DNA of 64,000 nucleotides from an uncultured Gammaproteobacteria bacterium (GTDB lineage Bacteria; Patescibacteriota; Patescibacteriia; SBBC01; CAIJZX01): contig CAYNGY010000004.1 of assembly GCA_964397195.1 (NCBI GenBank), positions 1,923 through 65,922 on the forward strand. The letters are read 5' to 3'. A program made the position numbers and the translations under genes. Below the pieces are notes generated by a model. It made no database searches and had not been told where the DNA came from. It was given only the letters and a program-made list of their open reading frames with translations. This document shows positions 17,049 to 54,301 of the stretch, piece by piece. Every line of letters starts with the position of its first letter. Position 1 is the first letter of the stretch.

Positions 17049-17852
17049 TCAGACCTTGACGTGGTCGGTACGGGTGACGAAGGAACCGTCGGGCAGGGCC
17101 ACGAGCGTGTAGTCGCCGAACATACTCGGCGCTTCCCGCTGCATGATCTTCAGCACCGCGACGGCGACCTTGCGGATCTCGACCTCGGCGTGCTCACTGC
17201 CCCGCAGCTCGATGAAGTGTCGCAGAGCCCGCGCATTCGCCGTGACGAAGATCTTGGTCTCCGTCGCGTTGGGTAGGACCGACCGCGCCGCCTGCCGCGC
17301 CATCTTCCGGCGCAACGTCTTGTCGGTCACGTACTGGAACTTCTCCTCGAGACCGGCCACGAGCAGATCGTAGCCACGTCGCGCGGCGTTGATCGCATGG
17401 GCCCAGATCGCGTGAAGCGCCGGGTCGTCCGCGATCACGTCCGGCTCGATGTAGTCGGAATCGCTCTCGTCCACGTACCGCTGAGAAAGCTGCGAATACG
17501 AGAAGTGACGATGGCGGATGAGCTCGTGGGTGAACGAGCGGGACGCGCCGGTGATCAGGAAGTTCCAGACGCCGTGCTCGAGGACCGAACCGTGTCCGAC
17601 CTCGATCAGGTGCGACATGAACTCCCCATTCGTCTTGCGACCTCGGCCGTACGACATGTAGCAGACCCGTCCGGCGATCTCGGCCAGCTTCTCAGCGCCG
17701 ACCTCCGTGTCCGTCTCCCAGGTCATGCCTTCGTCCGCCAGGAACCGTTCGATGTCCTCGTCGCAGGTGACCTGCTTTCCGACGAGAAACACCTTCGGCT
17801 CACGACTGATGGCCAGTGTTCCGGCGTAGTCACGCTCGAGCTTCGTGTCCAT
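17049..17852 (-). CDS. thyX: flavin-dependent thymidylate synthase ThyX
   Basis: ThyX signature RHRHFSYSQLSQRY. Start at MDTKLERDY, preceded by SD GGGAGGA. About 63% GC with strong GC3 bias. Confidence 0.85.
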   Translation of the reverse strand: MDTKLERDYAGTLAISREPKVFLVGKQVTCDEDIERFLADEGMTWETDTEVGAEKLAEIAGRVCYMSYGRGRKTNGEFMSHLIEVGHGSVLEHGVWNFLITGASRSFTHELIRHRHFSYSQLSQRYVDESDSDYIEPDVIADDPALHAIWAHAINAARRGYDLLVAGLEEKFQYVTDKTLRRKMARQAARSVLPNATETKIFVTANARALRHFIELRGSEHAEVEIRKVAVAVLKIMQREAPSMFGDYTLVALPDGSFVTRTDHVKV

Positions 17853-17986
17853 GCATCCTCCCCCAACGGTCATCCGTCGCGCAGGTGGTAGATACTGCCT
17901 GTAAGGGGCAACTACTTCACCCCTCTGTTGTGAAGTCGGGAGTAGCCTAGCAGAACAACGGCTCCCCGGTCAAAGGTACTCGACCA

Positions 17987-18103: not shown

Positions 18104-18802
18104 TCAGCGTCGCCGGCGCTTGGCCTGTGCCAGGGCCGCGTGGATGAGCTGAGAGGTCTCATTCCAGTCCTCCGGGAGCTCATAGCACGTGTCGCACCGG
18201 GCTTCGTAGGTGATTCCGGCGTTGTTGTACTTCGGGGTGTCCGGCAGGAAGACCGGGTGGAAGCGCGGAACCGGCTGGCCGAACTCGAGTCGCTGCGGAT
18301 ACTCCGCGCCCCAGCGTTCGCACTTCTTACAGCGGGCCTCGAGGAATTCCCGCTGGCCGGGCACCGCGATCAGGTTCGCCATCAACGGGAATGGGACCCC
18401 GCGGAAGTCGACCGGTAACCCGGACAGGAAGAGATTACGACCGGATCGTCGGACGGCCGCCAGCATCTCGAATGCGGCATCTGGCCCCTCGCGAAACGTC
18501 TGCGCGAACTGGACCTCGTCGAAGAAGATGTTCAGCGCATTCGATCGCAGGATATAGCGAGCCATCTGGGTCAGGCTCGACACCGGGATGGTTTCCGGAT
18601 ACTGCGCCTGGATACGACTCTTCACGCCGACCACGGTACGCATCGCCATCCGTGGCTGGAAGAACAAGACCCCGGACCGTTGGTTGGCCGGATCACGCGC
18701 CAGCCCGATCAGTCGGGTGGTTTTACCGGCGGTCATGTTGGCCACGATGATGCGCTGATCACCGAGGGTGTGAGACCGCAACGTTGGGAAGTCCAGCTTC
18801 AT
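18104..18802 (-). CDS. tdk: thymidine kinase
   Basis: P-loop NMTAGKTT, DEVQF, DFRG, and a C-terminal CKKC...CDTC zinc ribbon, all matching TK1-type Tdk. SD GAGGTG 7 nt before ATG 18802. Confidence 0.8.
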   Translation of the reverse strand: MKLDFPTLRSHTLGDQRIIVANMTAGKTTRLIGLARDPANQRSGVLFFQPRMAMRTVVGVKSRIQAQYPETIPVSSLTQMARYILRSNALNIFFDEVQFAQTFREGPDAAFEMLAAVRRSGRNLFLSGLPVDFRGVPFPLMANLIAVPGQREFLEARCKKCERWGAEYPQRLEFGQPVPRFHPVFLPDTPKYNNAGITYEARCDTCYELPEDWNETSQLIHAALAQAKRRRR

Positions 18803-18845
18803 AGTGCACCTCACAGAGAAGGACGGTCAGGGACGGACGGCTATG

Positions 18846-29320: not shown

Positions 29321-29349
29321 TTGACAATCCGGCCATTTTATGATAGTGT
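29321..29349 (+). promoter_or_regulatory. promoter P1 (TTGACA-17-TAGTGT), a copy of the cassette promoter family
   Basis: cTTGACAatCCGGccaTTTtATGATAGTGT aligns with P2 and P3. Confidence 0.5.
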
Positions 29350-43507: not shown

Positions 43508-45000
43508 GCCCAGGTTGCCACAAAGTCGGTAATAATCTGCTTCAACTGCGCCTCGAGCTCCGGCGTTAAATCTTTGGCAACAATCAATGAATCCATCCAA
43601 ACGCTCCCGACACCATCAAGATGGGCTCGGAAAGCGTCTTGAAAGGCCACGAGCTTTTCTGGATCGACGGCATCAAGTAACCCATTCGTCACCGCGTACA
43701 GAATGGCAACCTGCTGCGGCACCGCCAGCGGTTGGTACTGACCCTGCTTCAAAATTTCCGTCATCCGGCGTCCCCGTTCAAGCTGTTGTTTTGTGGCGGC
43801 GTCGAGATCGGAGCCAAACTGGGCAAATCCGGCCAATTCGCGATATTGTGCCAAGGCGATTCGAAGTTTCCCCGCCACTTTCTTCATCGCTTTCGTTTGA
43901 GCGGCCGAGCCGACACGAGACACCGACAACCCCACGTTCAGCGCCGGTCGAATACCTTGGTAGAACAAGTCCGATTCAAGATAAATCTGTCCATCCGTAA
44001 TCGAAATAACATTGGTCGGAATATACGCTGAGACGTCTCCGGCCTGTGTTTCAATGATTGGCAACGCCGTCATCGATCCACCTCCCGCTTCTGGATTCAA
44101 TCGCGCCGAACGCTCGAGCAGACGGGAATGGGCGTAAAAAATGTCGCCCGGATACGCTTCGCGTCCCGGCGGTCGCCGCAGGAGGAGCGAAACTTGACGA
44201 TAGGCCCAGGCGTGCTTGGAAAGATCATCAAATACGACCAGGACGTCTTTCCCTTGCGCCATGAAATATTCACCGATCGCACACCCGCTATACGGCGCTA
44301 GATATGAGAGCGCCGCCGGATCGGAGGCTCCGGCCAATACGACCGTCGTATAGTCCATAGCCCCAACTTCCTGAAGCTTAGCGACAATGCGCGCCACTTT
44401 TGATTCTTTCTGCCCGATGGCCACATAGATACAGATAACGTCTTGGCCCTTTTGGTTAATAATCGTATCAACGGCAATTGCCGTTTTGCCGGTTTGCCGG
44501 TCACCGATAATTAATTCGCGCTGTCCGCGTCCGATCGGAATCATCGCGTCAATCGCTTTAATCCCGGTTTGGAGCGGGACCGTCACCGACTGTCGGGTAA
44601 TGACTCCCGGGGCAATCTTTTCCACCGGCATCATCATCTCCGCCACCACGGCGCCCCGACCATCCAGGGCTTCACCGAGCGGATTCACCACCCGGCCAAT
44701 CACCCCGGCACCGGTCGGAACTTGTAAAATATTTCCGGTCGCCGTCACCCGCTGGCCCTGACGCACCGCGGCTGCGTCACCCAGAATCATGACCCCAACG
44801 GTGTCCTCCTCAAGGTTCAAGGCGACACCGTTCGTCCCGTCTTCAAAGGCGACCATCTCTGATGATCGTACATGCTTCAAACCGCTGACGCGGGCGATTC
44901 CGTCACCAACCTCAAGCACCGTACCAACCTCGGTCACGGTCGCCGAAGTCTTGGCGGTTGTAAGTTCTTTTGCTAATGCGTCAACGAGTGATTCGGGCAT
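43504..45000 (-). CDS. atpA: F-type ATP synthase alpha subunit
   Basis: Walker A GDRQTGKT, typical alpha subunit. Confidence 0.95.
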
Positions 45001-45003
45001 ACG

Positions 45004-45384
45004 TTATGCGTGAAAAAGAAGTGATTGTTGTAGTTGTCGTAAACGACCGTCTAAACTGGCGTCGATGCGACGATCATCGACAATAACCGCCACGCCCCGT
45101 CGAAGTTCCGGTCGGATCACGACCGTCACATCGGTTTTTGTAAGCTGATCGGCCAGGGCATCCGCCGCACGCGGCGTCGCGGCTTCAATTGTTACCCGAC
45201 GTCGGCCCCGACGAGCTGATTCGATATTTCGCAGATGTTCGAGCACTCGCGGCATGAGGCGCATCGCCCGATCGCGTCGGAGGCGATGGAGGATACGTGG
45301 CGCTATCTGCGCCACCGATGCTTTCGGCGCCGTCAAGGCCATATCGATGGCCATCGCATACTGGCGAGCGCTCAGCCGTTTCAT
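45004..45384 (-). CDS. atpH: F-type ATP synthase delta subunit, short form (126 aa, lacks most of the N-terminal domain)
   Basis: Matches only the OSCP/delta C-terminal region. ATGA overlap with atpF. Confidence 0.7.
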   Translation of the reverse strand: MKRLSARQYAMAIDMALTAPKASVAQIAPRILHRLRRDRAMRLMPRVLEHLRNIESARRGRRRVTIEAATPRAADALADQLTKTDVTVVIRPELRRGVAVIVDDRRIDASLDGRLRQLQQSLLFHA

Positions 45385-45887
45385 GATTTCGATGATAATT
45401 CTTCAAGCGCCTCACGCGCCGACTGCGTCTCAAAGGCCTTTCCGGATTTCTTCTCGATCACCAAGCCAGCGGCTTGCACCACGAGGGTCGCTAGGTCTTT
45501 CTTCGCTTCCGAGATCATGGCGGTTCGTTCACGACGAAGTTCGGCGCGAGCTTCCGACATCACCTTCTCAGCGTCGGTTTTCGCGTCGGCCACCAGCCGC
45601 TCGCGCATCACCTGGGCCTCGGCTCGCGCCGCCACTAAGATATCACCTGCTTCGCGGCGGGCTTGGGTCGCAATGTCTTTATGTTGGGCCTCGGCGCCGG
45701 CCAAGGCTTCGCGAGTGGCTTTTTCCTGATCAACAGTTTTGGCCGCTAAGGCCCGACGAGCATCGAGCACTTTCAAAATTGGGGCGAACGCGAATTTTCG
45801 CAGCACCCACAAAACGATCAGGAACGTGACGATATTCGCCACGAGGAGTTTCCAGTCGATTCCGAGTTTATGAATAAGTTCCCCCAT
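45381..45887 (-). CDS. atpF: F-type ATP synthase subunit b
   Basis: N-terminal TM then a long Ala/Glu/Arg-rich helix. Confidence 0.85.
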   Translation of the reverse strand: MGELIHKLGIDWKLLVANIVTFLIVLWVLRKFAFAPILKVLDARRALAAKTVDQEKATREALAGAEAQHKDIATQARREAGDILVAARAEAQVMRERLVADAKTDAEKVMSEARAELRRERTAMISEAKKDLATLVVQAAGLVIEKKSGKAFETQSAREALEELSSKS

Positions 45888-45898
45888 CGGGTGTCGGA

Positions 45899-46898
<1,000 letters not shown>

Positions 46899-46900
46899 GA

Positions 46901-47158
46901 TTATTGTTTCTTCGGTGTCTCTTTTTCAAGATCACGAAGGAGTTGAGAAAATTTTCGAACGAGGAAAACGGTCGTCACGAGGACGGCCATGGCCATCCCG
47001 CCCAAGAAGAGCCACGGCGTGGTACCAAACCGGCGATCGAGCCAGCGACCACCGAGGCCGAAGAGGAGAAGCGGAATGACGATCAGATACCCCAGCTCGA
47101 AGACCAATCCGAGGGCTACCCAATATGGTCGACGCGGGGTGTCAGGTTGGGTCTTCAT
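46901..47158 (-). CDS. atpI: AtpI/AtpZ-like small membrane protein (85 aa)
   Basis: Internal start MKTQPD... of track ORF 46901..47398; two TM helices; leads the atp operon. Confidence 0.6.
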   Translation of the reverse strand: MKTQPDTPRRPYWVALGLVFELGYLIVIPLLLFGLGGRWLDRRFGTTPWLFLGGMAMAVLVTTVFLVRKFSQLLRDLEKETPKKQ

Positions 47159-47198
47159 GGTGCATTCACATCTTTCATCCACAATCAAAAGCGCCGAG

Positions 47199-47253
47199 AG
47201 TATACTCGTTTTTCGCGAAATGCTCAAGACTGGGAAAACTTTTTGGCTAAGAT
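47199..47253 (-). promoter_or_regulatory. atp operon promoter (TTGAGC-17-TATACT) with upstream ATCTTAGCCAAAAA element
   Basis: -10 at 47204-47199 and -35 at 47227-47222 (minus). The 14-nt element at plus 47240-47253 lies 35 nt upstream of the -10, identical to the thyX promoter. Confidence 0.5.
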
Positions 47254-47277
47254 TAGCGAATCTTCGCAAATCACACC

Positions 47278-47305
47278 TTGACACTCCTGGTAAAAGGCAT
47301 AGTCT
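47278..47305 (+). promoter_or_regulatory. promoter of high-GC cassette 2 (TTGACA-16-TAGTCT)
   Basis: The track ORF 'start' (TTG 47278) is actually the -35 hexamer. Confidence 0.4.
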
Positions 47306-47340
47306 TCCGCCACCAATCGCACCACCCCTGCCACCCGAGC

Positions 47341-47874
47341 ATGGAGGTCGCCGTGGCCAAACACCACCGCCAAAAGCAAGCCACCCCGCGGGGAACAATC
47401 GACGAGCAGGAACTCCGCGCCGCCCAAGCCGCCTACGGCCGAAGCAACGAGGAGCGTGTCTTGTACCTGCTCGAACGGCACATTTCCAACGCCACCCATC
47501 GCCCGCCGTGGCTCGTCTCGATTCGACGCGCCACCGAGGAAGAAGACGTGCTCGGGATCGACCTTGTCGCTATCACCGTCGACAGCCCGAACGTCTACAT
47601 CCAGATCAAGAGCAGTGAGAGCTTTAGGAAGATCCATATCGACAAGGGTCGGAAGCTCTGGCGCGCCGGCGCGACGGTCCACATCACCGGCGTCATGATC
47701 GCCAATCATGCCCTGACGGACAAGAAGATCATCGGCCGCGGTATGGCGACGATCAGCCGCGTCTATCGCACCGTCAAGAACCTCGGCTCGAACATCATGC
47801 CGTCGTACCGTCACACGGGCGACGATATCACCGACTGTGACCACCACCCGGTCAACACCCCGGAGGTCCCATGA
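47341..47874 (+). CDS. NERD-domain (nuclease-related) protein, high-GC cassette 2
   Basis: GRSNEERVLYLLERH...EDVLGIDLVAITVDSPNVYIQIKSSE matches the NERD pattern GxxxE...L...EIDhhhh...hhIEVK. About 62% GC. No SD. Confidence 0.45.
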   Translation: MEVAVAKHHRQKQATPRGTIDEQELRAAQAAYGRSNEERVLYLLERHISNATHRPPWLVSIRRATEEEDVLGIDLVAITVDSPNVYIQIKSSESFRKIHIDKGRKLWRAGATVHITGVMIANHALTDKKIIGRGMATISRVYRTVKNLGSNIMPSYRHTGDDITDCDHHPVNTPEVP

Positions 47875-48017
47875 CCAAGCCGATCAACGTCGACTACGAG
47901 CATGAGGCACTGCGGTACGGCTGGATCCAGCGCCTCAAGGACCTGCTGACCCTCCCCTTCGCCGTCCTCGGCTTCATCTTCGTCTGGCTGTACGAGAAGA
48001 TCACTGGCGGCGACTGA
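47871..48017 (+). CDS. 48-aa single-TM peptide, ATGA-coupled to the NERD gene (not in the ORF track, under 60 aa)
   Basis: MTKPINVDYEHEALRYGWIQRLKDLLTLPFAVLGFIFVWLYEKITGGD. High GC3. Confidence 0.4.
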   Translation: MTKPINVDYEHEALRYGWIQRLKDLLTLPFAVLGFIFVWLYEKITGGD

Positions 48018-48041
48018 ACCGCCTACGCACATCCCTACCCC

Positions 48042-48095
48042 CCCCGGCTCACCACCGGGGCGGTTTTTCTTAATGAGAGCACCTCTCAGTAAGTG
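48042..48095 (+). repeat. terminator-plus-palindrome module, copy A
   Basis: CCCCGG-ctcaccac-CGGGG-CGG-TTTTT then CTTAATGAGAG-cac-CTCTCAGTAAG. About 85% identical to copy B. Confidence 0.6.
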
Positions 48096-48162
48096 ACTGC
48101 CGACCACGGAGCAGCTAGCTTTCCCATCCAGAACAATTCCTATGTCCGAAAATAGTATGCGG

Positions 48163-48405
48163 TCACTCCAAACGATCAACGCGTGTAGCGAGCTCATTAA
48201 ATTCAAAGCGATAGACCATTTGGTCCTGACGAAGCTCGATATGCTCGAGTGTGGTCTCAATCTTGTTCAACCGAAGGCTGACCTGGTCAAAGCCGGTTTT
48301 TGTGGCCGCCGCTAATGTATCGATGGTCGACTCGAGGCGTTCGAGACGCGTATCGACCCTCTGAATAATGGTAGTGAACATTTCCGGGGTGAGTTCTTCG
48401 GACAT
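48163..48405 (-). CDS. hypothetical 80-aa coiled-coil protein
   Basis: Heptad-rich (RLERLESTIDTL...LRLNKIETTLEHIELRQD). Own promoter TTGACA-16-TACGAT and SD GAAGAGG. Normal GC. Confidence 0.5.
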   Translation of the reverse strand: MSEELTPEMFTTIIQRVDTRLERLESTIDTLAAATKTGFDQVSLRLNKIETTLEHIELRQDQMVYRFEFNELATRVDRLE

Positions 48406-48512
48406 ACGGCCTCTTCAGCCAAGCCCAACATACGTTTTTATCGTAACGTCGGAGGTTATCCTGTCAAGAAGGGGTCGTTTTCTATATGAGGCTAACTCAC
48501 ATTAAACCGTCA

Positions 48513-48562
48513 CCGCCCTACGGGGCGGTTTTTTCCTTACTGAGAGTTCCTCTCAGTAAGAA
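48513..48562 (+). repeat. terminator-plus-palindrome module, copy B
   Basis: CCGCCC-tac-GGGCGG-TTTTTT then CTTACTGAGAG-ttc-CTCTCAGTAAG, a perfect 11-bp inverted repeat. Ends 2 nt before the nudix stop. Confidence 0.6.
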
Positions 48563-49051
48563 CTATGCGAGCTGGTCCGGTTTTTCGTGCAACTCCTGGC
48601 GCAAAATCTGCGCCGTGTACTCCGGCGTTGTCGGGCGGTCGTAATGGAACTGCCCAACAAAATCCTTGTTTGCAAGAAACATCGGCATCCAATACGCATC
48701 AGCCGCCCACATTTCTTTCAATGGCACCTCATGTTCACTAAACCACATCGGCCTCATTTCGTCGGTCTCACGTGGCGTGCCACGAAACTTCGTCACTCGA
48801 AAAACATGCGCCTCGCGGATCGTCGGCTCCGATTCGAACGTGAAGGTTAAAACACCAACTTCCTTCATCTCAACTACCTCCACTCCGGCTTCTTCCTGAA
48901 GCTCACGCTTGGCCGCCGCCACAATAGATTCATTCAACTCAACCTTGCCACCAAACCCATTCCACTTCCCCGCGCCGAATCCGCGCTTCTTCATCCCTAA
49001 CAACACCCGGCCATCCTGGTCGATGATCGCGATGGTCAGGAGTTTTTTCAT
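48563..49051 (-). CDS. NUDIX hydrolase (MutT-like)
   Basis: Nudix box GKWNGFGGKVELNESIVAAAKRELQEEAG. Confidence 0.85.
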   Translation of the reverse strand: MKKLLTIAIIDQDGRVLLGMKKRGFGAGKWNGFGGKVELNESIVAAAKRELQEEAGVEVVEMKEVGVLTFTFESEPTIREAHVFRVTKFRGTPRETDEMRPMWFSEHEVPLKEMWAADAYWMPMFLANKDFVGQFHYDRPTTPEYTAQILRQELHEKPDQLA

Positions 49052-49056
49052 GCGGA

Positions 49057-50097
49057 CTATTCGTTTTGATTCGGCTTCTCGATCTGCATCGGCTCCACCG
49101 TCGATTCAATATCCGCCACCTTCATCACGTCTTTCTCGACTTTCGCAAATTCTTTGTAGGCGATGTTATATTGATTGACGGTCGTACCGAGCGAGTTACC
49201 GAGTTTCGCCATATACGCATCGTACGACTGCAGGTGCTTGGCGAGGACTTCGACGTTCTTGCGAATTTCTTTTGCCGACTCCTCAATTTGCATAGCTCGC
49301 AAACCCTGGAGCACCGTTTGCAGATAGGCGAAGAACGAAGTCGGCGAAACGATAATGACGTGCTTTTCTTTAAAGGCGTAATCGATCAGATCGCGCGACG
49401 AAACACCGGCCGCCCCGACTTTATTCACCAGCAGATCATAATAGATACCCTCGGCCGGAATAAACATAAACGCGAAGTCCATGGTATTCTCCGCCGGGCG
49501 GATATATTTTGACGTCTCGTCAATCCGATTCTTTAAATCCTGTTTAAACGTCTTCTCAACCGCATCATGATCGGCTCCCGGCCCAAGCTCCGCCAAACGG
49601 TTGTAGTTTTCTAAACTAAACTTTGCGTCGACCGGGATAATTTTTTCCTGAATGAAAATTGCTGCATCAACGATTTCCCCGTCCTTAAATTTATACTGCA
49701 ACTTGTAATTCTTCGGCGGGAGCACGTTTTTTAGGACCGTTTCCAAATAGTATTCCCCGAGTACCCCGCGCTGCTTGGGATTCTTGAGTGTATCCTGCAG
49801 TTTTTGTAGTTGATCGGCAAAGGAAACCACCTGACGATTCGTCTCGTCGAGTTTCGTCAAGCGCTCGGTCACATCGCGCACAATCTTGGCGCTCTCCCCT
49901 AACTGAGACTGAATCGACTTCTGCATCGATTCGCCCTGACGGTCCATCCGATCGTGGATCTGCTTCAGGTCTTCTTTCAACATCAAAAACGAGGCCGAAT
50001 CGTCCGGCTTCTGCATCTTCTTCATCGCCTGGGCCTGAAACCACATTACCAGGCCGAAACCGACCACCACGAGAATAATGATAATCCATGTTTCCAT
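49057..50097 (-). CDS. rmuC: DNA recombination protein RmuC
   Basis: N-terminal TM, coiled coil, RmuC domain (IIPVDAKFSLENYNRL...). Confidence 0.75.
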   Translation of the reverse strand: METWIIIILVVVGFGLVMWFQAQAMKKMQKPDDSASFLMLKEDLKQIHDRMDRQGESMQKSIQSQLGESAKIVRDVTERLTKLDETNRQVVSFADQLQKLQDTLKNPKQRGVLGEYYLETVLKNVLPPKNYKLQYKFKDGEIVDAAIFIQEKIIPVDAKFSLENYNRLAELGPGADHDAVEKTFKQDLKNRIDETSKYIRPAENTMDFAFMFIPAEGIYYDLLVNKVGAAGVSSRDLIDYAFKEKHVIIVSPTSFFAYLQTVLQGLRAMQIEESAKEIRKNVEVLAKHLQSYDAYMAKLGNSLGTTVNQYNIAYKEFAKVEKDVMKVADIESTVEPMQIEKPNQNE

Positions 50098-50170
50098 GGC
50101 GGTATCCTAGCATGAGCGTCAGGAATGGCAAAACCGTGCTGGTCAACACTTCGAGACGGTCTTTTCCTGA

Positions 50171-50214
50171 AAACAAAACGCGGGTGGCGCTGGGATCGAA
50201 CCAGCACCACCCGC
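50171..50214 (-). terminator. intrinsic terminator of high-GC cassette 3; 14-bp stem with a T-loop-like TTCGATC loop
   Basis: Minus strand GCGGGTGGTGCTGG-TTCGATC-CCAGCGCCACCCGC followed by GTTTTGTTTT. Looks like a tRNA acceptor/T-arm minihelix. Confidence 0.6.
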
Positions 50215-50226
50215 AACGGGGAACAG

Positions 50227-51675
50227 CTACTTCTTCGCGTGAAGCGTGAACGGGACATCGACCACGACGTTCGCCGAGGTCCGGCGGCCGTTCGTGGGTT
50301 CGACCCGCGCTTCGAGGGTGATCGTTGCCAGCGGCAGCGCCACGGCGATGTGGCCATCGATCCGCTGGGTGAACCCACCGCGCGGGGCGTAGCGCACGGG
50401 TTCGAGCCCGCCGCCGAACGTCACCGCGCCATGAGTGTACTGCGCGTCGAGCACCGCACCTTCGGCCAGCGTCAGCCGATGCGTGCGATACGTGAAGACC
50501 ATCGCCCCGAGATCGACCCCGTGACCGGACCAGGCCAGCTTCGCCATCGGTCCGACGTAGGGGTGGACGCCGTCCGGCTTGACGAGCGTCCCGAGCGATC
50601 CACCGACATTCAGCGCCATCGCCGGGTGGGAGAGAAGGTCATAGCGCCCGAACAGGTCGAGCGCACTGCCGTCGGCCATCACCGTCGGATTGACGAGCGT
50701 CCGCCCGCCATCGAAGGTGTAGCCGTACATCGAGCCTCGACCGAAGGCCCACTCGCCCGCCGTCAGGGAGACGGTGTGCGGCGCGGCCACGGCCAGGGTG
50801 AAACCGAACGTCACGAACAGCGCGACGAAGGCGGACAGCAGGACAGCGAAGCGGGACATGCGGCTCTCCTTGAGAGTGGGCGGTGCACGCCCACGAGTGA
50901 TTGATCGTGACGGTGCCGTCACGACCCTCGTGACTGCACCACTGATACCGAGAACGAGCAGAAACACGACCGCCCAGTGCATTGCCGGCGGGAGTTCAGC
51001 CGTCTCGGGTGAAACAGGTGATGCACTCTGACACTGCGTCGAAGCCGTGATCTGCGTCTGCGTCGTCGGGAGGAGCACGGTGGGTGCTTTCCCGATTGTC
51101 AGCACAGACAGTAGCCCGAGCAAGATCAGTAGGTACGGGAACACGAGCATCACCCCCCAGGCCACGCCGCCGCCGATTCCGATCGACGATAGCGTCTTAG
51201 CCAACAGGAGGTACCAACGCCCATGGACCATGCCATACGCATCCAAGTATCCCGGACCCCACTGGCGGTTATGAGGATCGCGGTTGAAGTATCCCGACAT
51301 GCCGGCCGATCCGTAGGCCGTCCATGCCTGGCTCATCAACTCGTCGGTCACCCATTCCTTGCGCACGTGCGTCGAGGCCTTTGTGCCGCCTCCTACCCAG
51401 CGATGCGTCAGGTCGACAAGAATGGCCGGGAAATCGGCATGGTAAACGGTCGGATTCTCCGCCACCAACGCCATCGCCTTGTTCCAGTCTCGCCAGAACT
51501 CGTCCGGGTTTTGCGGATCGAGCAGACCAATCTGCGCCATCGTCCGGCTATGCAACGCACCGTCAGCGACGATCGTCCGCAAGTCGGCCTGAGCCCAGAT
51601 CAGTACCAGCGTGATTACAACACCTCCGATCAAGACCGGAGGACGTAACCAAATGTTGCGCTTCAGAAGAATCAC
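50227..51675 (-). CDS. hypothetical polytopic membrane protein (about 483 aa), high-GC cassette 3
   Basis: About 65% GC. The track start (ATG 51747) lies inside the promoter -10. Preferred start is GTG 51675 after SD AAAAGGGGG. Five or more TM helices, then a C-terminal secreted-type domain. Confidence 0.5.
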   Translation of the reverse strand: MILLKRNIWLRPPVLIGGVVITLVLIWAQADLRTIVADGALHSRTMAQIGLLDPQNPDEFWRDWNKAMALVAENPTVYHADFPAILVDLTHRWVGGGTKASTHVRKEWVTDELMSQAWTAYGSAGMSGYFNRDPHNRQWGPGYLDAYGMVHGRWYLLLAKTLSSIGIGGGVAWGVMLVFPYLLILLGLLSVLTIGKAPTVLLPTTQTQITASTQCQSASPVSPETAELPPAMHWAVVFLLVLGISGAVTRVVTAPSRSITRGRAPPTLKESRMSRFAVLLSAFVALFVTFGFTLAVAAPHTVSLTAGEWAFGRGSMYGYTFDGGRTLVNPTVMADGSALDLFGRYDLLSHPAMALNVGGSLGTLVKPDGVHPYVGPMAKLAWSGHGVDLGAMVFTYRTHRLTLAEGAVLDAQYTHGAVTFGGGLEPVRYAPRGGFTQRIDGHIAVALPLATITLEARVEPTNGRRTSANVVVDVPFTLHAKK

Positions 51676-51737
51676 CCCCTTTTCGCGCGAAGATGATCCG
51701 GCGAGAATGCCGGATGTATGCAAATGTGCGACCCCGC

Positions 51738-51766
51738 AAACTATCATAAATCCCCGGTTTTGTCAA
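51738..51766 (-). promoter_or_regulatory. promoter P2 (TTGACA-17-TAGTTT with CCGGGGATTTATGA block)
   Basis: Minus strand cTTGACAaaaCCGGGGATTTATGATAGTTT. Nearly identical to P1 and P3. Confidence 0.5.
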
Positions 51767-51803
51767 GACCGGGCGCTAGAAGCTGACCGAATTGAACGGT
51801 GTA

Positions 51804-52607
51804 CTACGCGTCAGCCGGCAGGCGAAAGAACCGTTTGGCGTTATCGGTGGTTATCTTCGCCACTTCATCCACACTGATCCCACGAACGTCCGCTACCGCC
51901 TGCGCCACCCTTTCCACCCACGCCGGCTCATTCCGTTTCCCTCGATTCGGTACGGGCGCAAGAAATGGCGCATCCGTTTCCACCATCAGTCGATCAAGCG
52001 GCATGTTTTTCACGACCTCCTGGAGTGATTCACTTTTTGGAAAGGTCAAAATACCGGTCACAGAAATCCAGCCTCCGAGATCGAGGAACGGTTGGGCATC
52101 AGCCCAGGTTCCCCCAAAACAGTGCATCACAAACGGCACTCCACCATGACGGCGCAAAATCACTGCGGCGTTTTCGTACGCTTCGGTTGAGCCGTTCTTG
52201 TCGCGGCAGTGAATAATAAGCGGGAGTCGCGCTTCTTTTGCCACGAGAATATGTTGCTCGAAAACGTCCGCTTGCACGTCACGCGTTTCAAGATCATAGG
52301 CTTCCAATCGATAGTAGTCCAGGCCGGTCTCACCAATACCGACAATCTTTTTACTGCCGAGTAACGCTTCGAGATGTTTCGGCGAAATATCACCAACCGT
52401 TTCGTCAGTTGGGTGCACCCCAATGGCCGCATAGACCGGTGTATTCGGATACTGCTCGGCCAGCCGAACACCGGCCAACGAATCTTCTAGATTAGTCCCA
52501 ATGGCAATCAGACCGATCCCGGCGTCGAGCGACCGCGTGATCATCTCGGCGCGATCGGCATCGTATTCCCCCATCTGGGGGTGGCAATGAGTATCAATCA
52601 GTCTCAT
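51804..52607 (-). CDS. tatD: TatD-family metal-dependent hydrolase/DNase
   Basis: MRLIDTHCHPQM... HxH motif. Start at internal M31 of the track ORF. Confidence 0.8.
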   Translation of the reverse strand: MRLIDTHCHPQMGEYDADRAEMITRSLDAGIGLIAIGTNLEDSLAGVRLAEQYPNTPVYAAIGVHPTDETVGDISPKHLEALLGSKKIVGIGETGLDYYRLEAYDLETRDVQADVFEQHILVAKEARLPLIIHCRDKNGSTEAYENAAVILRRHGGVPFVMHCFGGTWADAQPFLDLGGWISVTGILTFPKSESLQEVVKNMPLDRLMVETDAPFLAPVPNRGKRNEPAWVERVAQAVADVRGISVDEVAKITTDNAKRFFRLPADA

Positions 52608-52774
52608 GGACACAGGATAAATGAGGAACGCAAAAAAGTCGAATTCAAAAAAAATGACGATGGCTAACATTAGCCACGAATCGGAATAATTCAGCATTTC
52701 TTCAGTTTCAGAATCTATACTAACAGGTTGCCCCCGCGCATCTCGTTATACCCACGTTCCGCCGAACCAACAAC

Positions 52775-52877
52775 GCGGCCGGCACCTGTTTGAGGCGCGG
52801 GCCGTGGTTGGCCCGCGACGAGTCTGCCGGCCGCATGAATCTTCTTGGTTCTTCTTCTGTTCAAGCAGAAGAAGAAC
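52775..52877. other. highly structured intergenic region: nested GC hairpin plus a 12-bp perfect inverted repeat
   Basis: GCGGCCGGCA...TGCCGGCCGC with inner GCGCGGGCC/GGCCCGCG. Then GTTCTTCTTCTG-ttcaag-CAGAAGAAGAAC at 52848-52877. Neither has a T-tract. Confidence 0.4.
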
Positions 52878-52918
52878 GCCCCTCCGGCAGGAGAGCCACC
52901 CACACTGCTCAAGGAAAT

Positions 52919-53527
52919 CTACAACGGCAAATTCTGATTGAGAATTCCGGAGTCCTTCACCGCGTTGATCGTTTTTAACGTCCCATTCACATCAAGATTC
53001 TTCGGGAAAAAGGTGTCGAGGGCTTTTTGTGATTCCTTCAGCGCTTTCGGTAAGAACGGTACGAGCCAGGCCGAAATACCGAGTAAGAACGGAACCATGA
53101 AGGAGTGGTGGAGCGAGGTAGCCCAGCCTTCGGGAATCGGCAGTCGATTGACGAATTGTAGAATCAGTCCGAGAAAGATTGCGCCTTCGAGAAATCCGAA
53201 AATGGCGCCGCCAAATCGATTGACCATTTTTAAGCCGGGTACGATAGCGATGATGTTGAACAATTTATTGACGAACCAGACGATGATCGCTACAGCGCGC
53301 GTGGCCAAAAAGAAAATAACGATAAAGGCGGCAACTTTTCCTACCAGTTCATTGCCACCAACAATCGGCTGGACCGCGGGCGCGAGTCCTTCATACCACC
53401 GCGAGGCCACAAACGACCCAATAATTAAACCAAAGACGCCGCCGATTGACGAGATCAGTCCCGCCGTAAACCCACCCCAGACATAGGAGAAGAGGGCGAG
53501 AATAAGGATGAGATCGAGCCAAGACAT
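52919..53527 (-). CDS. cvpA: CvpA-family membrane protein
   Basis: Four TM segments, colicin V production protein family pattern. Confidence 0.7.
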   Translation of the reverse strand: MSWLDLILILALFSYVWGGFTAGLISSIGGVFGLIIGSFVASRWYEGLAPAVQPIVGGNELVGKVAAFIVIFFLATRAVAIIVWFVNKLFNIIAIVPGLKMVNRFGGAIFGFLEGAIFLGLILQFVNRLPIPEGWATSLHHSFMVPFLLGISAWLVPFLPKALKESQKALDTFFPKNLDVNGTLKTINAVKDSGILNQNLPL

Positions 53528-53554
53528 GTTGATAGTGTACTCCGCGACCCGAAC

Positions 53555-54301
53555 TTACTCAAGTTTTGGGCCGAGGGCCATGCCGCCGTCAACCGACCAG
53601 ACGGCGCCGGTCACGTAACTCGCTTGGTTCGAGACGAGGAATGACACCACATTGGCCACTTCGCTCACCTTCCCAATTCGTTGCATTGGCACCCGTTTCA
53701 CAAAGTAGTCCGTGTACTCGGTTCGATTCTGGAAGAATTTGTCGGAGATACCGGTCGTGACGGGACCCGGACAGACGGCGTTCACGCGGACGTTCTTTTC
53801 AGCGCCCTGCACAGCCCAAGATTTGGTCAACATAATCACCGCCGCTTTCGAGGCACTGTAGACCGCAACATCGTATTCAGGCATCAACCCGGCCACCGAG
53901 GAAATGTTGACGATCGTACCGGCCGTTTTAACGAGCGACTTCCACGCATGCTTAGTCATTACCACGGTACCCCGAACATTCGTGTCCATAATCTCGTCAT
54001 ACTTTTTCATGTCGAGTGAGCCGACTCCTTCTTCAACCAGGGCGATCCCAGCGTTGTTCACAACGGCATCAATTCGGCCCCACATCCGAACCGTGGCGGC
54101 CACCACACGTTTTGCATCCTTTTCCTCCCGCACATCACACGGCACAAACAGTGCGGCTCGACCAAGTCTTTTCGCGGCCGCGAGACCTGCGTCTTTGTTC
54201 CGATTTGCTAGGACAACTCGATACCCGTCCGCCACTAGTCGCTCGGCAATCCCAAAACCAATACCGTGCGATCCGCCGGTAACGATGGCTACTTTTTTCA
54301 T
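53555..54301 (-). CDS. SDR-family oxidoreductase
   Basis: TGGSHGIG Rossmann motif, catalytic YxxxK (YSASKAA). Start at MKKVAIVTGG. Confidence 0.85.
   Translation of the reverse strand: MKKVAIVTGGSHGIGFGIAERLVADGYRVVLANRNKDAGLAAAKRLGRAALFVPCDVREEKDAKRVVAATVRMWGRIDAVVNNAGIALVEEGVGSLDMKKYDEIMDTNVRGTVVMTKHAWKSLVKTAGTIVNISSVAGLMPEYDVAVYSASKAAVIMLTKSWAVQGAEKNVRVNAVCPGPVTTGISDKFFQNRTEYTDYFVKRVPMQRIGKVSEVANVVSFLVSNQASYVTGAVWSVDGGMALGPKLE

Follow-up and report, generated by a model that had tools for sequence, protein, structure and literature searches.

Several nucleases of the PD-(D/E)xK superfamily form the background to the gene analyzed here. DUF4365 (PF14280), the 'RE/DREN' nuclease domain, serves short-Argonaute defence systems of the SPARDA type as their effector; in the DUF4365 nuclease TmuRE, the putative active site comprises Q62 and K64, and the Q62A/K64A version has been described as an inactive mutant (PMC10810196). 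NERD-domain proteins belong to the same superfamily; many of the bacterial ones have a transmembrane segment in cis, and in trypanosomes a NERD-domain protein has been implicated in rRNA processing (PMC12702573). The gene in question lies at 47341..47874 (+ strand) in a 64,000-nucleotide stretch of contig CAYNGY010000004.1 (the window) and overlaps an open reading frame (ORF) for a 48-amino acid (aa) membrane peptide; the original prediction, made from the DNA letters, took the pair for a NERD nuclease with a tiny membrane partner in a defence or toxin island. We consider it rather likely that the gene encodes a stand-alone member of an undescribed PD-(D/E)xK family and a probable endonuclease, that it occupies a conserved slot between atpI and rmuC, and that the allele found in the window, which is rich in G and C at third codon positions (GC3), was imported, or replaced a resident copy, together with the peptide gene.

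A protein family with a predicted nuclease core

An exhaustive phmmer search of 1.84 billion cluster representatives yielded relatives of the window protein in 94 clusters at E<1e-3 (8 at E<1e-10), the best of them merely 41–42% identical to the query, and the membership has mostly a Patescibacteria context. Word-indexed homology search returned, for both proteins of the locus, solely the Logan contig L001, which is 100% identical to positions 44143-54095 of the window and therefore provides no independent evidence. Scans of Pfam, NCBIfam, PADLOC and PHROG produced nothing meaningful for either window protein, the family consensus sequences had no nuclease match in Pfam, and phmmer and profile searches against the PDB sequences gave nothing relevant. 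None of Pfam, NCBIfam, PHROGs and PADLOC includes a model for the family, which is previously undescribed. Its members share the pattern G-x-x-N-E-x-R ... R-P-P-W-L ... A-T-x-x-E-D-x-x-G-I-D-x-V-V ... L-x-L-Q-V-K-S-S, in which W57, D74 and K90 (numbering of the window protein) are invariant across the 94 relatives, and E37, D69, G72, Q88, S91 and S92 are conserved in at least 90% of them; E37, D69, D74, Q88 and K90 are the predicted residues of catalytic type. Several members deviate from the compact form: P0017 and P0022 (L002, 6001-6822) are extended at the C-terminus by about 120 aa without a Pfam match, P0032 apparently contains three tandem copies of the domain, and P0059 ends in a tail rich in cysteine.

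The AlphaFold2 model obtained from the family alignment has a predicted local distance difference test score (pLDDT) of 86.9, rising to about 97 in the core, and a predicted template modeling score of 0.76. It consists of helix 22-50, strands 58-63, 75-79 and 85-90, helix 93-108, strand 116-120 and helix 127-148, and this alpha-beta-beta-beta-alpha-beta-alpha topology is that of the PD-(D/E)xK core, which would place the protein in that superfamily. In the model, helix 1 carries E37, D74 is located where strand 2 begins, and strand 3 contains Q88-x-K90; the aspartate of strand 2, the lysine of strand 3 and the glutamate of helix 1 that characterize the superfamily are accordingly all present, with Q in place of D/E. 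The Foldseek search against the PDB gave a best E-value of 0.04 and template modeling scores of about 0.2–0.3, with a list dominated by PD-(D/E)xK enzymes: SfsA, RecE, a restriction-endonuclease-domain protein, TnsA, AvaII and VRR-NUC, along with a tRNA-splicing endonuclease, SwaI, an arenavirus endonuclease, BamHI and a CdiA-CT toxin. Against the viral structures of BFVD, the matches were nucleases, VRR-NUC, RecU, Cas4 and MmcB (E = 1e-3, probabilities up to 1.0), and Holliday-junction resolvases are included among the Foldseek matches. The modeled core, the conservation of E37, D74, Q88 and K90 and the Foldseek matches agree with each other, so that the original prediction of a putative nuclease is supported at the level of the fold.

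The locus beside the atp operon

The reading frame of the nuclease-like protein opens at TTG 47278 (198 aa) or at ATG 47341 (177 aa) and is closed by the TGA at 47872-47874; the 48-aa ORF (47871..48017, + strand) starts with the ATG of the overlap, ATGA at 47871-47874. The two ORFs have an overall GC content of 0.62 and 0.61, respectively (about 62% had been claimed for both), compared with 0.54 for the window. By codon position, the GC content is 0.60/0.42/0.83 in the nuclease-like ORF and 0.58/0.31/0.94 in the peptide ORF, against 0.60/0.41/0.60 in 20 pooled long ORFs of the window. Positions 1 and 2 are thus typical of the genes in the window and position 3 alone is shifted, as fits true coding on the + strand, and both ORFs are real coding sequences, as originally described for the 177-aa ORF and its ATGA-overlapping companion. 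A 207-aa antisense ORF was rejected as a true gene because its GC1 of 0.78 is atypical. The neighbor on the other side of the promoter region is an AtpI-like gene (46901-47158, - strand; Pfam ATPase_gene1, E = 1.4e-9).

The original prediction regarded the location of the gene directly upstream of the ATP synthase promoter as an unusual insertion. The AtpB protein encoded in the window is 66–67% identical to those of Candidatus Kerfeldbacteria metagenome-assembled genomes (MAGs), and at least six other metagenomic lineages resembling Kerfeldbacteria have a homologue of the nuclease-like gene in the same slot, read in the direction opposite to atpI and placed ahead of rmuC. These include the 52.6 kb contig of P0027 (with the order atp operon, atpI, family gene, 93-aa gene, NUDIX, 257-aa gene, RmuC, one gene, TatD, CvpA), locus L005 (atpB, atpI and then the family gene), the Kerfeldbacteria MAG locus L008, the JGI metagenome loci L090/L091, L092 and L093/L088/L089, and L006, whose family gene borders rmuC. 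The gene and atpI are divergently arranged in the window as well as in L005, L090, L092 and the genome with P0027, whereas other genes stand between the family gene and atpI in L008 and L093. On the other side, the family gene adjoins rmuC in L006, L008 and L092, with 15-35 nt between it and the rmuC end, and elsewhere lies within 1-2 kb of it. The presence/absence comparison of neighboring genomes that had been proposed shows, along with these relatives, two that lack the gene: L011 (the closest species representative) and L016, in which rmuC is about 370-470 bp from atpI. It is also absent from six more Patescibacteria loci with several kb upstream of atpB (L009, L010, L012, L015, L024 and L031). 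Given that several divergent relatives have homologues at this same place, the position is ancestral, contrary to the insertion scenario, and the simplest history would be that of an old accessory gene of patchy occurrence, located in a variable interval, that some lineages lost.

The syntenic copies of the family protein are 29-52% identical to each other, compared with 71-93% for RmuC; AtpF (37-39%) and CvpA (44-48%) from the same loci are also diverged, so that the genomes themselves are deeply separated and the family simply belongs to their faster-evolving proteins. Two stronger interpretations of these numbers were abandoned. Exceptionally fast evolution of the family had to be toned down because AtpF and CvpA are almost equally diverged, and recent mobility of the homing-endonuclease kind was ruled out because the copies are far more diverged than the RmuC flanks.

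The interval between atpI and rmuC holds different cargo in each relative, within an otherwise conserved cvpA-tatD-rmuC-atp backbone: NUDIX, a DUF3467 protein and two small ORFs in L090 (5517-6900), a 1125-aa surface protein with Big_7/fn3 (Ig-domain) matches and two membrane proteins in L093 (2333-5710 and 6461-7538), and a GT87 glycosyltransferase in L008 (8500-9465). Farther along the backbone, rmuC and tatD, immediate neighbors in L008, are separated in the window by a 506-aa ORF (50227-51747, - strand; GC 0.63, GC3 0.77) without a Pfam match that has the appearance of a true insertion, GC-rich and lineage-specific. A promoter-like TTGACA-N17-TAGTTT site (51766-51738) overlaps the annotated ATG of this ORF, and the real start is therefore probably further downstream.

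The odd composition of the high-GC cassette, as originally perceived, is borne out by the numbers: across 50 window ORFs (mean GC3 0.61), the excess amounts to 3.1 standard deviations for the nuclease-like ORF and 4.7 for the peptide ORF. The excess spans exactly these two ORFs and fades upstream of 47281. GC3 of the family gene is also clearly above that of its neighbors in L006 and L007, as it is in the window, but not in L008 or L093. Since the GC3 of both ORFs is far above that of the neighboring genes, recombination with a relative of higher GC content probably brought in the window allele and the peptide gene, or put them in the place of a resident copy. The names of Kerfeldbacteria MAGs point to a GC range of 42-61%; no donor-like sequence came to light for the GC3-rich allele, the best relative being the 41–42% identical one. 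Elsewhere in the window, thyX (Thy1; 17049-17873, - strand) and the thymidine kinase gene (18104-18814, - strand) have the highest GC3 of the 50 long ORFs, 0.85 and 0.81, respectively, which suggests that a GC-richer source supplied these nucleotide-salvage genes as well.

Expression signals and the membrane peptide

The TTG at 47278, the start of the longest version of the ORF, had been taken for part of a -35 box, and this reading is credible: TTGACA at 47278-47283 belongs to a promoter-like site, TTGACA-N16-TAGTCT (47278..47305, + strand), that recurs at homologous loci. The form TTGAC(A/T)-N16/17-TA(G/A)nnT is found 63-94 nt upstream of the start at 7 of 8 such loci. A generic promoter scan did not flag the 47278-47305 site because its -10 element agrees with TATAAT at 3 of 6 positions only. 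The same scan predicted the atp operon promoter, TTGAGC-17-TATACT (47199..47227, - strand), upstream of the AtpI-like gene, so that the two sites stand back to back. The retention of the promoter across loci indicates independent transcription of the gene, including in L008, where it is preceded by a gene on the same strand. The TAGNNT version of the promoter occurs 3 times in the window compared with 0.11 expected; the TTGACW-N16/17-TAGNNT sites are 29321-29349 (+), 47278-47305 (+) and 51766-51738 (-), and this form is also present upstream of the family gene in L005, L007, L008, L090, L092 and L093. Promoters with G at the third -10 position may be widespread in these Patescibacteria or confined to a regulon.

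As for the start of translation, GGAGG (47343-47347) precedes an in-frame GTG at 47353 by 5 nt, whereas no Shine-Dalgarno sequence is present ahead of ATG 47341; the start at GTG 47353 is favored for this reason, and the nuclease-like protein would probably comprise 173 aa. Comparison of start sites across 8 homologues agrees with this choice, with GGAGG in 7 and GGAG in 1, located 5-8 nt ahead of the start.

The 48-aa peptide has a single hydrophobic stretch, LKDLLTLPFAVLGFIFVWL, with a KD19 maximum of 1.84, in accord with the one transmembrane segment originally assigned to it; a GGAGG motif (47862-47866) ends 4 nt ahead of its ATG, so that codon-position GC, hydrophobicity and a ribosome-binding site all mark it as a gene. 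A search of 5.8 billion proteins found no homologue of the peptide besides its own copy, and BLAST against every ORF of 101 loci found nothing. We also looked for small ORFs with a transmembrane-like segment that start between -40 and +60 nt from the nuclease stop at loci with at least 180 nt downstream; none was found after the family gene at 14 other distinct loci, leaving the window and the identical copy L001 as the only cases. At L006, L008 and L092, the 15-35 nt up to the end of rmuC would not accommodate such an ORF. The peptide is, on this evidence from sequence comparison, restricted to the window genome, or lineage-specific, and the idea of a module consisting of a NERD protein and a tiny membrane partner is not supported. 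Of the two findings by which the original prediction proposed to be judged, conservation of the small ORF thus fails, whereas the PD-(D/E)xK assignment stands. A frameshifted fusion of nuclease and transmembrane segment was considered as the origin of the pair and ruled out because no homologue has a transmembrane segment.

Both ORFs end, as noted originally, at an intrinsic terminator ('copy A', 48042..48068, + strand) that would close the two-gene transcript and consists of a stem at 48042-48060 with 6 G-C pairs followed by a T-run (z = -3.1). Directly after it comes the palindrome CTTAATGAGAG-CAC-CTCTCAGTAAG (48069..48093) with perfect 11-bp arms, a second copy of which (48536-48560) follows a second terminator (48512-48529); the window contains these 2 matches against 0 expected. 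Together with the 3' half of the terminator and the T-run, the palindrome forms a 37-nt direct repeat (48057-48093 and 48523-48560), CGGGGCGGTTTTT(T)C(C)TTAMTGAGAG-N3-CTCTCAGTAAG, with just two copies within the 64 kb, which flank an 80-aa coiled-coil ORF (48163-48405, - strand). No copies of the palindrome were found in the 87 loci searched or in JGI metagenome contigs, and the second repeat copy ends no + strand gene. An operator, a bidirectional terminator and a duplication scar are candidate explanations of the repeat. A search of the window against Rfam gave no match.

Function, substrate and relation to known nucleases

The mechanism that we favor is that of a metal-dependent endonuclease acting on duplex nucleic acid. 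The gene would be expressed from its own promoter and ribosome-binding site, with no conserved partner gene, and in the stand-alone form of the protein, the basic N-terminal tail may take the binding role that a double-stranded RNA-binding domain (dsRBD) has in some relatives; in the ancestor of the clade, the gene would have occupied the slot divergent from atpI and upstream of rmuC, to be subsequently lost by some members. Several points weigh against this interpretation. The Foldseek E-values against solved structures are weak, so that the fold call rests on topology, motif and consistency of the matches; nuclease activity is putative for every member of the family; and with Q in the (D/E)xK motif the chemistry could be altered. 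Something other than transfer could account for the GC3 excess, a conflict or defence gene could likewise be patchy in distribution and poorly conserved (29-52% identity), and the dsRBD fusions occur in distant branches (E = 1e-5 to 1e-3 to the window protein), so that the stand-alone form may have a different substrate.

These fusions bear directly on the substrate. The Pfam dsrm model matches 7 of the 94 members above or near the threshold (best E = 3.6e-9), and by eye, several more of the N-terminally extended members display the dsRBD-typical pattern G-x-G-x-S-K-K-x-A. The model of P0085 (pLDDT 84) consists of two N-terminal alpha-beta-beta-beta-alpha modules, a long helix and the nuclease core, and its N-terminal half matches, in Foldseek, the dsRBDs of Loqs-PB, TARBP2, DRB4, DGCR8, PKR and Rnt1p (E = 1e-5 to 1e-2, probability 1.0). 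We found no description in the literature of a fusion of this domain to dsRBDs. These observations, in part drawn from predicted structures, suggest that at least the dsRBD-fused branch acts on duplex RNA, which makes duplex or structured RNA a serious candidate substrate for the family; the N-terminus of the window protein is only a basic disordered tail, so that for this protein an RNA substrate would be an extrapolation. A bolder version, which we consider quite improbable, is that the family is a previously unrecognized class of RNA endonucleases centered on Patescibacteria, with a QxK site in the PD-(D/E)xK core and guided by dsRBDs in some members and basic tails in others, that process duplex or structured RNA such as rRNA intervening sequences. 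The rRNA genes of many bacteria of the candidate phyla radiation are interrupted by intervening sequences, and we know of no enzyme identified so far that processes these; a link of the family to their excision is speculation. The dsRBD-fused relatives make the choice between RNA and DNA as the substrate directly testable.

A role in defence was the original proposal, namely, a two-gene defence, abortive-infection or toxin module in which the nuclease is the effector or toxin, and the peptide is an anchor, sensor, antitoxin or second toxin. The translational coupling of the ORFs (ATGA, GGAGG) and their common anomalous GC3, the patchy distribution and poor conservation of the family, the defence effector DUF4365 as the nearest Pfam model, the variable atpI-rmuC interval, and the transmembrane segment that many bacterial NERD proteins have in cis (PMC12702573) are all compatible with such a module. 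Nevertheless, we regard it as unlikely. Neither protein has a match in PADLOC, PHROG or NCBIfam, and among the 94 relatives, at most 2 match any one PADLOC-DB model, with marginal E-values and no consistency; the peptide has neither a homologue nor a counterpart at the 14 other loci; and no member turned up among IMG/VR contigs, GenBank phages and PLSDB plasmids. The neighbors are atp, rmuC, NUDIX, tatD and similar genes, and members elsewhere are found next to housekeeping or envelope genes as well, such as trmD/msrA/RNase III/nusB (L007), ClpB/PPase/PriA (L002), SmpB/IF3/L20 (L099) and RlmH/Maf (L100). Furthermore, one chromosomal slot is kept across genomes whose AtpF proteins are just 37-39% identical. 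The claim of a defence, abortive-infection or toxin island is, accordingly, not upheld.

The proximity to rmuC raises a different possibility, that the protein functions in DNA repair or recombination, in a pathway with RmuC, as a structure-specific nuclease or a resolvase of minimal size and of the Hjc/RecU/VRR-NUC type. The Foldseek matches to VRR-NUC, RecU, MmcB and Holliday-junction resolvases point in this direction, and both the size and the E...D...(E/Q)xK spacing resemble those of minimal resolvases. However, the gene is convergent with rmuC and not co-transcribed with it, having its own promoter; the close relatives L011 and L016 have rmuC but not the family gene; members elsewhere are not near repair genes; and the dsRBD fusions indicate RNA rather than DNA junctions, so we give a repair function a low probability. 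The protein might, alternatively, be a catalytically inert nucleic acid-binding protein, for example, a regulator that acts through the divergent promoter region common with the atp operon, given that the divergent arrangement with atpI recurs across genomes and the usual acidic residue of (D/E)xK is replaced by Q. This appears very unlikely: all the catalytic-type residues are invariant or nearly so across the 94 clusters, the gene is separated from atpI in L008 and L093, many members are far from atp, and QxK is reported as the putative active site of DUF4365 (PMC10810196), such that the QxK of the family is compatible with catalysis.

The preferred interpretation, a stand-alone PD-(D/E)xK endonuclease, can be compared with the described nucleases one group at a time. 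The window protein is not a NERD protein by the standard Pfam test, with no match to PF08378 at E<=10, and a single match among the 94 relatives (E = 0.0071) is below the cut-off, so the original domain name is withdrawn; the nuclease motif was nonetheless recognized correctly at the level of the superfamily. NERD domains display the same layout, that is, G-x-x-x-E in helix 1, followed by strands with (E/G)-I-D and h-h-(E/Q)-h-K, which explains what was recognized. The two differ in that the transmembrane element at the window locus is a separate ORF and is not conserved. DUF4365 is the most frequent of the nuclease models matched in the Pfam scan of the 94 members, all of them below threshold (DUF4365 in 15, RE_MjaI in 10, and NERD, Mrr_cat and Hjc in 1 each); its best match (E = 0.0018) covers the W...D...QxK core, and the QxK form of the active site is common to both families. 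Still, all matches of the family to DUF4365 are below 24.3 bits, and the window protein has none; unlike DUF4365, the family is stand-alone, about 150-175 aa long, with an RPPW motif and KSS after the lysine, and at none of the inspected family loci is there an APAZ fusion or an Argonaute gene, as would be expected of SPARDA.

The minimal PD-(D/E)xK nucleases (VRR-NUC, Hjc/RecU, MjaI and the HinP1I/MspI type) resemble the window protein in the single-domain core with E...D...(E/Q)xK; RE_MjaI accounts for the 10 weak matches given above, and HinP1I has a QxK motif. The difference from these enzymes is the lack of any significant sequence or profile match to solved structures and, from restriction enzymes, the lack of a methyltransferase partner; nor is there evidence of junction or site specificity. 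With RNase III-type enzymes, distant members of the family have in common the joining of a nuclease-like domain to one or two dsRBDs, and the NCBIfam RNaseIII model matches 3 members, presumably via the dsRBD. The catalytic fold of the family is, however, that of PD-(D/E)xK in the models, its dsRBDs are N-terminal, and the window protein has none.

The comparison corrects three annotation calls, 'NERD domain protein', 'Defence island' and 'Recent insertion at the atp promoter', and shows that the atpI-rmuC interval is variable in this clade; in other respects, this is an ordinary uncharacterized accessory gene. If the protein is an active nuclease, it adds a compact enzyme of the QxK type from the poorly characterized Patescibacteria, and in relation to the known systems the novelty is that of a new family or variant inside the very well known PD-(D/E)xK superfamily.

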